Origin: a bacterium | GTDB taxonomy: Bacteria > JAAXHH01 | Assembly (NCBI GenBank): GCA_965203885.1 | Contig: OZ241920.1 | Coordinates: 3,858,323-3,922,322, forward strand | Direction: 5' to 3' | Length of the DNA: 64,000 bases | Part shown: positions 50,521 through 55,735 of the stretch, in pieces | How positions within the stretch are numbered: the first letter of the stretch is position 1 | Layout of the letters: the number at the start of each line of letters is the position of its first letter | The notes under the pieces: model-generated | What the model was told of the DNA's origin: nothing | The model's database searches: none | The model's input: the letters and a program-made list of their open reading frames with translations, nothing else | Made by a program: the position numbers and the translations under genes

Positions 50521-50549
50521 TTGAGTAAAATTAGTCATATGCGTATCAT
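50521..50549 (+). promoter_or_regulatory. Candidate promoter giving a near-leaderless transcript
   Basis: TTGAGT-N17-TATCAT. The -10 ends 6 nt before the ATG at 50556. The local sequence is AT-rich. Confidence 0.4.
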
Positions 50550-50555
50550 AACGGG

Positions 50556-51833: not shown

Positions 51834-54800
51834 CCCATTACGTCTCTCGGACCTGTACGGAAATCGGCAATAAGGGCTCCCGGGATGAGTCCGAGTGTCC
51901 TTCCCGGCCTCTCGAAGATTTTCGGGAGACGGAAGCCTATGTACTGCTGGGTGCTCCCGGGGCGGGCAAGACGGAGGCCTTCAAACAAGAAGCAGCCCAG
52001 TGTCTAGATGGATGCTACGTCGAGGCGCGGGACTTCAATACATTCGATGACAAGCCTGAATGGCACGACGCCACCCTCTTCATCGACGGTCTCGACGAAA
52101 TGCGGGCCGGCTCGACGGACGGGCGTACGCCGCTTGATCGCATTCGCAACACACTCAATTCCCTGGGATGCCCCCGATTCCGCCTGTCCTGCCGTGAGGC
52201 CGACTGGTTCGGAGCCAACGACCGGACCCGTCTGCAGATGGTGTCGAAAAACGGCGGGGTCAACGTACTGCGCCTGGACCCGCTGTCCGACGAGGACATC
52301 CGAGAGATTCTGGTCCGAAATTACCACATCGACGACCCGGACAGCTTCATCGCCTCGGCCCGAAAGAGAGGAATCGACGGGTTGCTTCCGAATCCTCAAA
52401 GTCTGCGGATGCTGGTCGCCGCGGTCGCCGGCGGCCGTTGGCCCGAGACACGGATGGAAACCTTTGAATTGGCGTGCCGCACGCTGCTCAAGGAGCACAA
52501 CCCTGAGCATCAGATCGCAAATCCGGATGGCGCCGACATCTCCAGATTGATGGACGTCGCGGGGCGTCTCTGCGCCGTGCAACTTCTTACCGGCAACGCC
52601 GGTTACACCCTCCCCGGAAACCCGATCAGCGACCCTGGATACCCGGGCTTGGAACAGATTCCCGACGACGATCGTGCAACTCTTCGCCATACGCTGGGCA
52701 GCAAACTGTTCGAGGGTCCATCCGAAGGCCGCGTGGCTCCCGTGCATCGGCAGATTGCCGAGTTTGTGGCCGCGAGATACCTCGCGCGCCTCATTGCCAA
52801 TGGCCTACCTGTCGGGCGGATTCTCGCCCTGATGACGGGACATGACGGCGTCCCCGTTTCGGAGCTGCGCGGTCTTTCCGCCTGGCTCGCAGCCTGTAGC
52901 AAGGCCAGCCGATCCGAGGTCATTACAAGAGATCCGCTCGGAACGACCCTTTATGGCGACGTTCGACACTTCTCGACCAATGAGAAACGTGGATTGCTGA
53001 AAAGCCTGGAGCGTGAGGCAAAGCAGAAGCCCTGGTTCCGGGACCTGTCCGGATCCGATGCCAGACTAGGCGATATCGCCACGCCGGATATGGGACCGAG
53101 ATTTCGAGAGATATTGGGCGACCCGACGCGAGAGGACGCAAAACAATCCTTCGTTCGAATTCTACTCTTGTCGCTCAAACATGGTCGCGCGATCCCAGGT
53201 GTTTCTGATCAATTATTGGATATCGTCCAAGACGACAGTCGCTCCATGGGTGTGAGAAGCGTGGCCATTGATGCATTCATTCGGCAAACAGGCGACGGTG
53301 AGTCGGCTGACTCCAATCTCAAGTCACTACTGGCCAACATCGATGCTGGATCGGTGTCCGACCCGGACGACGAGTTGCTCGGTTTCCTGTTGATGGAACT
53401 CTATCCCAAGTGCCTGTCGGCTTCCGAAATCCTGGGATATCTTCGGAGACCCAAGAACACATCTTTACTCGGGAAATACTACCGCTTCTGGGCAGGACAT
53501 GTTCCAGCAAAATCAACGACGGTTCAGTGTGGAGAGCTTATTGATGGGATCGCGCAGAAATTCAACCAACTGAAACCTGCGTTCTTGGGCACGTTTGGAC
53601 AAGTCATCTATGGACGTCGGTTACTACTCCCTCTACTGAAACGTCTTCTAGAGTCTTCTCCGGCGAACATTTCTCCCGACCGTCTCCTCATTTGGCTCGA
53701 CGTCATCTCGGACCGCGAGCTCCGAATCTTCCCGCAACGGGTCGAGTTCATTCTTACCTGGTTGAGTGCTCGTCCGAAACTGCTAAAAGAACTGGTCAAG
53801 CTGGCATCGAAACACTGCGCCAAGCATGAGTTGGAGCGTCTCCTGTTGCAAGCCGCTCGGCCAGCTTCCATTCCGGACAGTACAGCCCAGGAAACACATT
53901 ACGGTGGGCGGTACGAGGAGGAAACAAGACAGCTCCAGCGGGAGTGGCGTAATTACTTCAAGCCGCATGAATCGAAGCTGCGCGAAAACCGATGTCAACC
54001 GGTGTTTCTACATCATCTGGCCGCAGTGTACTTCGGTCTCCACGTCGATGCTGAGGGCGATACCCCGTTGGATCGGCTGCAGAACGTGCTGGGAACCGAC
54101 GAGAACCTGATTCAGGCCGTCCTAGAGGGTCTCCGTCGATCTATCGATCGAAGTGACCTTCCCACCGTCTCGGAAGTCATAAGCCTCGGGATTCGAGATC
54201 GGCAGCACTACCTGGCCCTACCGTTCATGGCGGGCATGGAAGAGGCTGTTCGAACGGCACAGGATCGCGATCTTTCGCTGGACGAGAAGCAGATGCGTCT
54301 GGCTCTCGCCATTCACTACACGTTTCCCTCCCCCTTTTGCGATGACCCGTGTCCCATCTGGTTTCCGCCGTTGCTGAAATCTCATCCAGATCTGGTCGCC
54401 GAGGTTCTGATTTCATCCGTCCGTCCCAGGATCAAGAGCGATCCGCACATCGCTGGCGATCTGGACGACCTCGCATATTCCGCAGATCATGCAAAGGTCG
54501 CCCGATTGGCGTCGTTTCCATTGTTGAAGGCATTTCCCGTCCGCTGTACACAACAACAACTGCGGGTTCTGCATCCCTTGCTGGAAGCCGCTATTCGACA
54601 CTGTGACGAACGAATGCTTCTGGACCTGATCAAAACCAAGCTTGCGCACCACAGCATGAACGTGGGACAACGCGTCTACTGGCTGGCCGCAGGTTTCCGT
54701 GTCTCACCGGACTCATACCTCGATCGGCTTGAGTGCTTCGTGGCTGGGAACGAGCGCCGGGTTGCTCACTTGGCGGAAGCCATTGCCGGAGACCGAAGGC

Positions 54801-55735
54801 CACCAGCTCCCATCGAACGCCTGCACGGTCCGGCGCTGAAGCTTGTGATCCACTTGTTGGGTCGTTCCTACAGACCCTATTTCCGTTACTCGCATGCCCG
54901 ATCGGGAAAAGTCTACGAATATACACTCGACATGCAGACCTCCTACCAAATCCAATTGGCCATCGATCGACTCGCTTCCGACCCATCAGAGTGCGCTGCC
55001 GAGATGCTCCATTCGTTCGCCAAGGACGACAACCTAATTTCGTGGCGAATCGATCTAAACTTTGCCATTAATCAGCAAAACGATCTCCGACGCGAGTCCA
55101 GCTTCCGCCATGGCGACATCGCCCAAGTGATCCAGGTGCTCGACAACCGGCTACCGGCGAACGCCGCCGACCTGGCCGCCCTGACGACCGAGTATCTGCG
55201 CGAAATCTCAAGAAACATCCGGGATGGGAACACTTCCGACTGGAAGCGGTATTGGAACGTCGATCCGTACAATCGTGCCGAGCGTCCGAGACCGGAAGAC
55301 GCATGCCGCGACATGCTGCTGCCGGACCTGCAAGGCAGGTTGAAGCCATTGGACATCGACGCCCAGAAGGAAGGCCGTTACGCCGACGATAAACGTTCGG
55401 ACATTCGTGTTTCCTACGGCCAACAATTCAACGTCCCGGTGGAGATCAAGAAAAGCTGTCATTCCAATCTGTGGAGCTCCATCAAACGTCAGTTGATCCC
55501 CAAGTACACCCGGGATCCGGGTTCAGACGGCTACGGCATCTATCTCGTTTTCTGGTTCGGAAACACGGAACATTGCCGACCGATGCCGGGGGAGAACTCC
55601 CCTCCGAAGAGCGCCGACCGACTCGAAGAACTGCTACGAGACACCCTCTCAGAGGAAGAACGACGCAAGATCTCGATTTGCGTCATCGACGTCGCGCAGC
55701 CGGAGACCCGATCGAAATTCCAACCCTCCGTATGA
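51830..55735 (+). CDS. NACHT/STAND-type NTPase with a helical repeat region and a C-terminal PD-(D/E)xK-like domain
   Basis: 1301 aa with an ATGA overlap onto the upstream gene. Walker A is LLGAPGAGKTE (51950..51973) and Walker B is LFIDGLDEM. LRLDPLSDEDI and NPQSLRML are also present. The C-terminus reads QKEGRYADDKRSDIRVSYGQQFNVPVEIKKS (D at 55400, EIK at 55442..55450). Confidence 0.7.
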   Translation: MTHYVSRTCTEIGNKGSRDESECPSRPLEDFRETEAYVLLGAPGAGKTEAFKQEAAQCLDGCYVEARDFNTFDDKPEWHDATLFIDGLDEMRAGSTDGRTPLDRIRNTLNSLGCPRFRLSCREADWFGANDRTRLQMVSKNGGVNVLRLDPLSDEDIREILVRNYHIDDPDSFIASARKRGIDGLLPNPQSLRMLVAAVAGGRWPETRMETFELACRTLLKEHNPEHQIANPDGADISRLMDVAGRLCAVQLLTGNAGYTLPGNPISDPGYPGLEQIPDDDRATLRHTLGSKLFEGPSEGRVAPVHRQIAEFVAARYLARLIANGLPVGRILALMTGHDGVPVSELRGLSAWLAACSKASRSEVITRDPLGTTLYGDVRHFSTNEKRGLLKSLEREAKQKPWFRDLSGSDARLGDIATPDMGPRFREILGDPTREDAKQSFVRILLLSLKHGRAIPGVSDQLLDIVQDDSRSMGVRSVAIDAFIRQTGDGESADSNLKSLLANIDAGSVSDPDDELLGFLLMELYPKCLSASEILGYLRRPKNTSLLGKYYRFWAGHVPAKSTTVQCGELIDGIAQKFNQLKPAFLGTFGQVIYGRRLLLPLLKRLLESSPANISPDRLLIWLDVISDRELRIFPQRVEFILTWLSARPKLLKELVKLASKHCAKHELERLLLQAARPASIPDSTAQETHYGGRYEEETRQLQREWRNYFKPHESKLRENRCQPVFLHHLAAVYFGLHVDAEGDTPLDRLQNVLGTDENLIQAVLEGLRRSIDRSDLPTVSEVISLGIRDRQHYLALPFMAGMEEAVRTAQDRDLSLDEKQMRLALAIHYTFPSPFCDDPCPIWFPPLLKSHPDLVAEVLISSVRPRIKSDPHIAGDLDDLAYSADHAKVARLASFPLLKAFPVRCTQQQLRVLHPLLEAAIRHCDERMLLDLIKTKLAHHSMNVGQRVYWLAAGFRVSPDSYLDRLECFVAGNERRVAHLAEAIAGDRRPPAPIERLHGPALKLVIHLLGRSYRPYFRYSHARSGKVYEYTLDMQTSYQIQLAIDRLASDPSECAAEMLHSFAKDDNLISWRIDLNFAINQQNDLRRESSFRHGDIAQVIQVLDNRLPANAADLAALTTEYLREISRNIRDGNTSDWKRYWNVDPYNRAERPRPEDACRDMLLPDLQGRLKPLDIDAQKEGRYADDKRSDIRVSYGQQFNVPVEIKKSCHSNLWSSIKRQLIPKYTRDPGSDGYGIYLVFWFGNTEHCRPMPGENSPPKSADRLEELLRDTLSEEERRKISICVIDVAQPETRSKFQPSV

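Follow-up and report, generated by a model that had tools for sequence, protein, structure and literature searches.

A candidate two-gene anti-phage operon: an EruA-like NACHT gene coupled to a DUF4143 ATPase gene behind a palindromic element

Introduction

Whether two overlapping nucleoside triphosphatase (NTPase) genes work together against phages, or are merely neighbours, is the question raised by a locus in the bacterial contig OZ241920.1 (assembly GCA_965203885.1, GTDB lineage JAAXHH01), of which a stretch of 64,000 nucleotides (positions 3,858,323 to 3,922,322 of the forward strand; the window) was analysed. All coordinates given here are positions in this window, and L numbers are labels of related loci. 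Gene 1 encodes an AAA+ ATPase with a DUF4143 C-terminal part, and gene 2, which overlaps its end, encodes an EruA-like NACHT NTPase with a nuclease-like domain at its C-terminus. An original prediction, made from the sequence alone, had taken the pair for a candidate undescribed two-gene defence module with an unusual order of domains in gene 2, and had placed both open reading frames (ORFs), their ATGA overlap and all the peptide motifs that it quoted exactly where they were found here (Table 1).

Following the results below, the locus would be a two-gene anti-phage operon, consisting of an Avs10-like sensor-nuclease and a dedicated ATPase partner, a reading to which we assign a probability of roughly 60%. 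Neither the family of gene 1, nor that of gene 2, nor the C-terminal position of the nuclease is new; as far as this can be checked, it is the conserved two-gene operon, together with a palindromic element upstream of it, that is undescribed.

Erebus, Hypnos and bNACHT64, which have been renamed Avs10, comprise proteins that respond to the phage major capsid protein by killing the cell, and mutation or deletion of their effector abolishes this cell death (Nature 2026, PMC13581612). In the literature reached, the Erebus/Avs10 proteins, being bacterial relatives of animal NLRs, are treated as single-protein sensors. EruA and HyoA are reportedly the proteins of the Erebus and Hypnos systems that van den Berg et al. 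described in Cell Host Microbe in 2024.

A gene pair conserved across phyla

In species-representative genomes, a gene 1 homologue of 60-72% identity lies immediately upstream of gene 2 in 11 of 13 loci, the hosts of which include Pseudomonadales, Binatia, Thalassobaculaceae, Paracoccaceae and Azotimanducaceae. A further 79 loci came from metagenomes, and in the combined set the pairing was seen in 78 of the 84 loci whose upstream DNA was long enough, across Alpha- and Gammaproteobacteria, Binatia and other groups, and the gene 1 homologues are 49-92% identical in all paired loci. The junction is kept as well: among 70 distinct versions a 4-nt overlap occurs 51 times and a 1-nt overlap five times, and all fall within -17 to +7 nt. 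Both genes diverge in step (Spearman 0.85 between their identities to the window copies, n = 74), and the association also holds in reverse, since a DUF8371 gene (the Pfam family of gene 2, see below) follows, with a 4-nt overlap, all three of the close gene 1 homologues that were picked because the gene 2 list did not obviously include them. The original prediction had made the module depend on co-conservation of the two genes, and such co-conservation, with translational coupling across phyla, is what was found.

The paired genes group into a single clade of a neighbour-joining tree, apart from the stand-alone plasmid homologues of EruA, and the unpaired loci L007, L056 and L048/49 are nested within this clade, apparently as secondary losses of the partner. 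On plasmids the two families were met separately: a relative of gene 2 was found on 56 records and one of gene 1 on 11, with no record in common, and the three plasmid EruA genes that were inspected stand alone, one of them passing the EruA cutoff. A DNA search of E. coli genomes with the Pantoea EruA homologue gave no match. In the literature reached, which did not extend to the original Erebus paper and the relevant supplements, no DUF4143 protein is described together with Erebus, Avs10 or NACHT, and within this scope the pairing is indeed undescribed, as had been proposed.

It is likely that gene 1 and gene 2 form a functional unit. Independent genes in islands are normally shuffled, and here adjacency, order and a distance of at most 7 nt are kept in 70/70 junctions, across phyla and between completely different flanks, in a paired clade that is monophyletic and old (gene 2 identity goes down to ~33%). 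This is difficult to reconcile with the alternative that two independent defence genes are merely stacked in one transcription unit and have no functional interaction. Such stacking would account for the occurrence of EruA-like genes alone on ~24 plasmids and of DUF4143 ATPases on 11 other plasmids, never on the same record, and for the losses of the partner within the paired clade; moreover, PADLOC lists PDC-S01, to which gene 1 belongs, as a single-gene candidate, and cell death triggered by the major capsid protein was reported for Avs10 with no mention of an accessory gene (PMC13581612). On the other hand, one PDC-S01 representative alone did not protect against T4, T5 and T7 (PMC12881386), and on balance we consider independent stacking unlikely.

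Gene 2 as a member of the EruA family

Gene 2 was recognised by NCBIfam only. Local Pfam and PADLOC scans gave nothing useful, and the local Pfam NACHT model did not match at E ≤ 1. Against NF058535 (NACHT domain-containing antiphage protein EruA), gene 2 scores 914.2 bits (E 1.9e-274), which is less than the 1000-bit curated equivalog cutoff of this model; a stand-alone homologue from a Bradyrhizobium plasmid scores 1034.8 bits, and those of Pantoea and Vibrio score 772 and 777. The match is colinear, with residues 18-665 aligned to profile positions 8-639 and residues 691-1301 to positions 736-1317 of 1318; an indel-rich stretch lies at residues ~665-700, where local alignments to homologues also break. 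Gene 2 has more than 4000 homologues, and its precomputed Pfam family is PF28130, which is DUF8371 in newer Pfam. With HyoA, the homology is distant and extends over the NACHT region and the C-terminal domain; at 180.5 bits against a cutoff of 1200 for NF058534, gene 2 is clearly no HyoA orthologue.

Ahead of the Walker A motif lie 40 residues in which no domain was detected, in agreement with the roughly 40 residues that had been noted. The motif fits GxxGxGK[ST], and D86-G-L-D-E90 fits the NACHT Walker B signature D[GAS]hDE that is quoted in the Kibby preprint, which bears out the earlier description of LFIDGLDEM (residues 83-91) as NACHT-like. Residues P43, G44, G46, K47, T48, D86, L88, D89 and E90 are at least 90% conserved, in an alignment that took in stand-alone plasmid homologues at 25-27% identity. 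The region that follows, some 900 aa of which had been read as helical repeats, held up in the part that was examined, residues 1040-1135, which are predicted to be helical; by analogy with Avs10, the middle region of gene 2 is presumed to be the sensor.

Gene 2 is very probably an EruA-family anti-phage STAND protein, and in a broad sense it can be counted among the Erebus/Avs10 proteins, with a score under the strict equivalog cutoff. With 25-30% identity to the stand-alone homologues and a score under the cutoff, the target that it senses may differ from theirs. This placement overturns one half of the original prediction, according to which the architecture of gene 2 was undescribed and lay outside the defined Avs and bNACHT clades: gene 2 is colinear with the EruA model, its C-terminal nuclease-like domain included, and membership of Avs10 is essentially the outcome that the prediction itself had named as speaking against it. 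Because gene 2 belongs to a published family, a C-terminal effector without an N-terminal one is simply the normal layout.

Avs1-4 and bNACHT proteins are similar to gene 2 in that a STAND NTPase couples a repeat or helical sensor, which recognises a conserved phage protein fold, to a nuclease-type effector. In Avs1-4, however, this effector is N-terminal, whereas the effector-like domain of gene 2 is C-terminal, as it is in the whole EruA/HyoA family. Extra genes are said to occur in AVAST types 1 and 3 as well, in the work of Gao et al. from 2020, and we know of no AVAST type with a DUF4143 ATPase.

The C-terminal nuclease-like domain of gene 2

The AlphaFold2 model of residues 1040-1301, for which 71 homologues were aligned, has a mean predicted local distance difference test score (pLDDT) of 85. 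It consists of a helical lead-in, followed by an alpha-beta-beta-beta-alpha-beta core with helices at residues 1156-1174 and 1214-1226 and strands at 1176-1180, 1192-1196, 1200-1208 and 1236-1242. D1191 is located at the start of the second strand and E1205-x-K1207 in the third, and all three residues are contained in SDIRVSYGQQFNVPVEIKKS. With the homologues of 25-27% identity included, E1156, E1181, R1189, D1191, E1205, K1207, H1211 and Q1221 are invariant. Both the topology and the invariant D...ExK therefore substantiate the D-x(n)-ExK signature of PD-(D/E)xK nucleases that had been noticed in this part of the sequence.

When used alone, the last 262 residues match positions 1075-1317 of the 1318 in the EruA profile (256 bits) and positions 1189-1406 of HyoA (E 9.4e-10). 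A Foldseek comparison with the PDB gave no match at E ≤ 0.001, the best being SfsA (E 0.013, probability 0.96); nearly all of the top ranks are PD-(D/E)xK nucleases, namely SfsA, EcoO109I, McrC, PspGI, Can2, DdmD, EcoRV and NucS. The nuclease-like character of the C-terminus is well supported as a fold in the model and as a motif. Gene 2 shares with Erebus/Avs10 this same domain with identical invariant residues. Further shared features are a short N-terminus, a NACHT NTPase containing D[GAS]hDE and a long helical region.

Gene 1, a DUF4143 ATPase of the PDC-S01 family

Gene 1 matches Pfam AAA_14 (E 3.4e-24, 85.7 bits, cutoff 27) and DUF4143 (E 1.4e-27, 96.8 bits, cutoff 28.1), both above threshold, which agrees with its earlier reading as an AAA+ ATPase of the DUF4143 type. 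PADLOC model PDLC04791 (PDC-S01) matches end to end, over residues 4-422 (E 3.7e-165, 547 bits), and gene 1 has the Pfam domains that define this candidate; we take the PDC-S01 ATPase to be of the COG1373 type. The novelty claimed for the two-gene module consequently holds for the pairing and not for gene 1, which belongs to an already listed candidate. PDC-S01 is, however, a single-gene candidate, whereas gene 1 comes first in a conserved operon whose second gene is EruA-like.

The motifs that had been read in gene 1 (GPRQTGKTT, VLVFDEIQ and HEVDFVL...IAIEVKSG) are all present, with key residues that are invariant or nearly so. In Walker A, a set of 55 homologues shows no variation at G28, P29, R30, Q31, G33 and K34, and across 164 sequences the conservation of these residues is 97% or more; in Walker B, D115, E116 and Q118 are invariant. 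HEVDFVL...IAIEVKSG occupies residues 359-379, within which D362, E375 and K377 do not vary and E360 is conserved to at least 90%. The whole AlphaFold2 model of gene 1 is poor (pLDDT 52), and within it the C-terminal PD-(D/E)xK-like module has the order alpha-beta-beta-beta-alpha-beta at pLDDT 55-88; weak profile matches were found to CARF_PDDEXK (E 0.02) and YraN (E 0.09). Foldseek matches of the gene 1 model were to AAA+ proteins including ORC/Cdc6, none of them significant, and little weight is given to these. Sequence searches of the PDB returned no relative of the gene 1 or the gene 2 protein.

Between Walker B and the nuclease-like module, the segment DAGNTTTLARYLDLLSAAGLITG is a putative winged-helix DNA-binding segment. 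D263, A264, G265, N266, T268, T269 and L270 are invariant, as are Y273, L276, L277, A280, G281 and L282, and the putative winged-helix motif DAGNTTTLARYLDLL is invariant or nearly so in the homologues. Because the AlphaFold2 model is poor in residues 263-285, the helix-turn-helix assignment draws on the sequence pattern. An Rfam search over the region gave nothing credible, the only match being a sub-threshold one to the xerDC RNA within gene 1 (51378-51476, + strand; 32 bits versus a gathering score of 72.5, E 0.025), which is most likely due to chance.

A palindromic element upstream of gene 1

When upstream DNA is aligned across loci, the '-35' hexamer of the original prediction turns out to be the inner left arm of a palindrome of ~34 bp with the consensus TTACnnTAnTGAGTAAATTTACTCAnTAnnGTAA. 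This palindrome recurs at the equivalent position in 75 related loci, which together hold 68 distinct versions of it, with the end of its 16-nt core usually 18-19 nt before the start codon. Over the 68 versions, the 15 symmetric pairs are complementary in 85.8% of cases, compared to 76.0 ± 0.8% in shuffles and 31-47% with the register slid, and compensatory double changes number 116 versus 43 ± 7; neither value was reached in any of 500 shuffles. The copy in the window has diverged, with an intact left half-site, ATTGAGTAAAAT.

The promoter-like hexamers TTGAGT and TATCAT were found at the positions proposed for them. Taken alone, the match does not exceed chance (2 sites versus 1.3 ± 1.2 in shuffles); the geometry of -35, 17 nt, -10, 6 nt and ATG also exists in the closest relatives (L097, L098 and L017) and, with TAATTT or TAGAAT as -10, in many further related loci, and it is this conservation across ~70 related loci that makes the match meaningful. 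The spacing of TTGAGT, TATCAT and ATG would imply a leaderless or nearly leaderless mRNA. Since many loci keep the TTGAGT, the 17-nt spacer, the TAATTT, TAGAAT or TATCAT and the 6-nt gap, the arrangement reads as a leaderless promoter overlapped by an operator, and the palindrome is likely to be this operator. In other loci the palindrome directly adjoins the ATG.

Several comparisons bear on the owner of the element. Three direct repeats of ATTGAGTAAAATTA lie upstream of a DUF4143 ATPase gene that stands alone on a Bacteroides plasmid (41% identity), a Thermus copy carries a version with one mismatch, and a Coxiella copy another palindrome built on the same plan, whereas no palindrome was found at the stand-alone EruA genes examined (L014-L016). 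The element thus belongs to the ATPase gene and not to EruA, and the direct repeats in Bacteroides are more in keeping with a protein-binding DNA site than with an RNA hairpin. The obvious candidate for the binder of the element is the invariant helix of gene 1.

Two other roles for the palindrome were considered. An attC-like site or cassette end was set aside, as a second flanking copy is present in only 2 of ~80 loci, and a terminator of the upstream gene was rejected, as the palindrome has no T-run and is tied to gene 1 whatever gene precedes it.

Additional copies exist in some loci: in L002, L019, L034/35, L060 and L062 a second palindrome lies in tandem, 56-81 bp upstream; in L047 (9210-9245) one follows the stop codon of gene 2 by 85 nt; and in L071 two adjoin unrelated ORFs, 1.8 kb upstream of gene 1's own copy (1860-1895) and ~2.2 kb downstream of gene 2 (11310-11350). 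They may serve as further operators or be left over from insertion.

The exact core palindrome, TTGAGTAANNTTACTCAA, also appears in 42 stretches of IMG/VR viral contigs (L103-L144), which is roughly the level expected by chance, and no homologue of gene 1 or gene 2 was found in these contigs. In at least eight independent phage lineages a third half-site is positioned at exactly +23 or -12 (for example L109:11553-11582, L112:3771-3800 and L123:657-686), and these three-half-site elements are intergenic and adjoin terL, DNA methylase, NinG or HNH genes. The observation suggests a binding site that is common to phages and to the promoter of the DUF4143 ATPase.

A possible mechanism and its alternatives

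In the two-gene operon that we favour, the helical region of gene 2 would bind a phage structural protein, by analogy with Avs10 most likely the major capsid protein. Binding would lead to NTP-dependent oligomerisation through the NACHT module, and this in turn would switch on the C-terminal PD-(D/E)xK nuclease-like domain, resulting in cutting of DNA and abortive infection. Gene 1 would be dedicated to gene 2 as its partner, encoded with it on one leaderless transcript and coupled to it in translation. In the role that we prefer, it would bind the palindrome at the promoter and so set the level of a potentially toxic EruA-like protein; a direct action on DNA, as a second arm, is conceivable as well. 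That gene 1 is an autoregulator is a tentative proposal, for which we would give somewhat less than even odds.

A number of observations weigh against this reading. As for gene 2, it falls short of the EruA equivalog cutoff (914 versus 1000), it is 25-30% identical to the stand-alone homologues, and no PDB match of its nuclease-like domain reached E ≤ 0.001 in Foldseek. Plasmid homologues of EruA have no DUF4143 neighbour and, since EruA-like genes exist and apparently work alone, the partner is not needed by the whole family; the Avs10 paper, likewise, mentions no accessory gene (PMC13581612). Correlated divergence of the two genes can come from linkage alone, and both the interaction of the two proteins and the binding of the palindrome by gene 1 are steps that we infer. 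The palindrome of the window is degenerate on its right side, with 7/15 pairs complementary, and the same is true of the closest relatives; no clear correlation emerged when variants of the operator were compared with the putative recognition helix of gene 1. Finally, G.T mismatches outnumber A.C mismatches in the palindrome (52 versus 23), which makes an RNA or single-strand hairpin a possible alternative to a protein-binding site.

Instead of a regulator, gene 1 could be a catalytic co-effector or a DNA sensor that recognises invader DNA, for example TTGAGTAA-type phage sites, and works with EruA in such a way that recognition of protein and DNA are both needed, or that either one triggers DNA cleavage. 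The invariance of its ATPase and nuclease motifs would make sense in that case, as a pure repressor would not need them, and so would the fixed three-site arrangement of the half-site in phage genomes. The 42 exact matches in viral contigs are, on the other hand, within a rough chance estimate, and both the recognition of such sites by gene 1 and a link between these phages and hosts that carry the pair are putative; this role seems slightly less probable than independent stacking. That the pair is instead an addiction or maintenance module of a mobile island, with a nuclease toxin, an ATPase controller and palindromes as recombination or end sites, is highly improbable, for although toxin-antitoxin genes adjoin, the GC content at third codon positions (GC3) is low and the extra palindromes of L047 and L071 indicate that the pair can be palindrome-flanked, the second flanking copy is restricted to the 2 loci mentioned, no recombinase is associated, the anti-phage activity of gene 2's family is experimentally established and the neighbours of relatives are defence genes.

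The favoured operon differs from Erebus/Avs10 as known in that the clade of gene 2 has an adjacent, coupled DUF4143 ATPase gene and a palindrome, whereas the plasmid homologues of EruA lack the ATPase gene and, where examined, the palindrome; conversely, this locus does not share the stand-alone organisation of these homologues. A clade that is large and old, crosses phyla and has a coupled AAA+ ATPase-nuclease suggests added control or a second activity, which would escape tests of one gene at a time. In metagenome surveys, candidate defence calls to DUF4143 ATPases (PDC-S01) are among the commonest, and through the pairing this orphan family gains a defined partner and a defined cis element. 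If gene 1 were an obligate, sequence-specific DNA-binding partner that licenses or directs the Avs10-type sensor via a TTGAGTAA-type palindrome in both the promoter and phage genomes, which seems unlikely at present, it would provide the first functional role for the abundant and unvalidated PDC-S01/DUF4143 family, and the system would be a bacterial NLR-like immune system with two signals, phage protein and phage DNA. If the pairing is incidental, the locus is one more Erebus-family member in a defence island.

Layout of the locus and composition

Table 1. Positions of the features of the locus in the 64,000-nt window
Feature	Position	Strand	Description or basis
Palindrome of ~34 bp, diverged copy	50513..50546		match to consensus; directly upstream of gene 1
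Sigma-70-like promoter, TTGAGT-17 nt-TATCAT	50521..50549	+	predicted by promoter scan; ATG 6 nt downstream
Gene 1	50556..51833	+	AAA+ ATPase (AAA_14) with DUF4143 C-terminal part, 425 aa
Gene 1, Walker A GPRQTGKTT (residues 28-36)	50637..50663	+	conserved in homologues
Gene 1, Walker B VLVFDEIQ (residues 111-118)	50886..50909	+	D115, E116 and Q118 invariant
Gene 1, putative winged-helix DNA-binding segment (residues 263-285)	51342..51410	+	sequence pattern
Gene 1, C-terminal PD-(D/E)xK-like module (residues 329-403)	51540..51764	+	E360, D362, E375, K377
Gene 1/gene 2, ATGA stop/start overlap	51830..51833	+	read directly in the sequence
Gene 2	51830..55735	+	EruA-like NACHT NTPase with presumed helical sensor and C-terminal nuclease-like domain, 1301 aa
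Gene 2, Walker A GAPGAGKT (residues 41-48) to Walker B/NACHT LFIDGLDE (residues 83-90)	51950..52099	+	conserved signature
Gene 2, middle region, presumed helical sensor (residues ~401-1136)	53030..55237	+	profile alignment
Gene 2, C-terminal PD-(D/E)xK-like domain (residues ~1137-1290)	55238..55699	+	E1156, E1181, D1191, E1205, K1207
SNF2 (DrmD-like) helicase remnant, ~67 codons	56179..56379	+	within ORF 56089-56640

The GC content of gene 2 is 57.2%, and that of gene 1, at 62.1%, equals the mean of the window (62.1%). GC3 is 0.65 in gene 2 and 0.77 in gene 1, compared to 0.84-0.87 in the flanking core genes. The block of lower GC that had been suspected is therefore found in gene 2, by either measure; gene 1 does not belong to it by its overall GC and is intermediate by its GC3.

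Genomic neighbourhood

In the closest relative, L097 (gene 1 82% identical), genes for UbiD, endonuclease IV and MIP lie upstream, as in the window, and the gene pair is followed by a full SNF2 helicase of more than 1000 aa (SNF2-rel_dom and Helicase_C). In the window only a remnant of such a helicase is left, which is 91% identical over 67 aa to the N-terminus of the L097 protein and also has a weak NCBIfam match to DrmD. As the rest of its ORF is unrelated, the helicase, and perhaps a larger system with it, was deleted or replaced here, and the remnant, after which unrelated sequence and toxin-antitoxin genes follow, marks the edge of a remodelled defence island. Other relatives have Eco57I-type genes, or restriction-modification, AAA_15 and HNH genes, as neighbours; with flanks that vary and neighbours that are defence genes, the pair is part of a variable defence island inserted beside core genes.

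The run of toxin-antitoxin modules that had been noted next to the pair comes down to one complete RES/Xre pair (57855-58921, - strand; a RES-domain toxin and an overlapping Xre/helix-turn-helix antitoxin) and one AbrB/MazE/PrlF-type antitoxin (56637-56957, + strand) without a recognisable toxin adjoining, the other small ORFs being unclassified; an ORF of 81 aa (55769-56014, - strand) had no family match. Elsewhere in the window, GC is low at 10000-13000 and 59000-61000 (0.49-0.52 versus ~0.64), with a strong negative GC skew in the second of these regions, and both are likely to be other acquired islands.

Some of the related loci are damaged or rearranged. Viral contigs contained no intact gene pair, only an IS5-truncated EruA: in L096 of IMG/VR (1398-6280), an IS5 transposase cuts the gene and the C-terminal half is left (profile positions 635-1318), followed by a gene for a HEPN_LA2681 protein, with an IS1 transposase and a resolvase nearby. 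In L099 (5001-10500), gene 2 is broken into an ORF of 656 aa and a distant DUF8371 fragment of 132 aa and gene 1 is intact, in an island that also holds an Eco57I-type methylase, an AAA_15/AAA_21 ATPase and an HNH_2 gene. L003, finally, has a second, truncated gene 1 homologue (542-1471; 67% identity over 310 aa) ~3 kb upstream of the pair, which hints at duplication of the ATPase gene or at repeated insertion.

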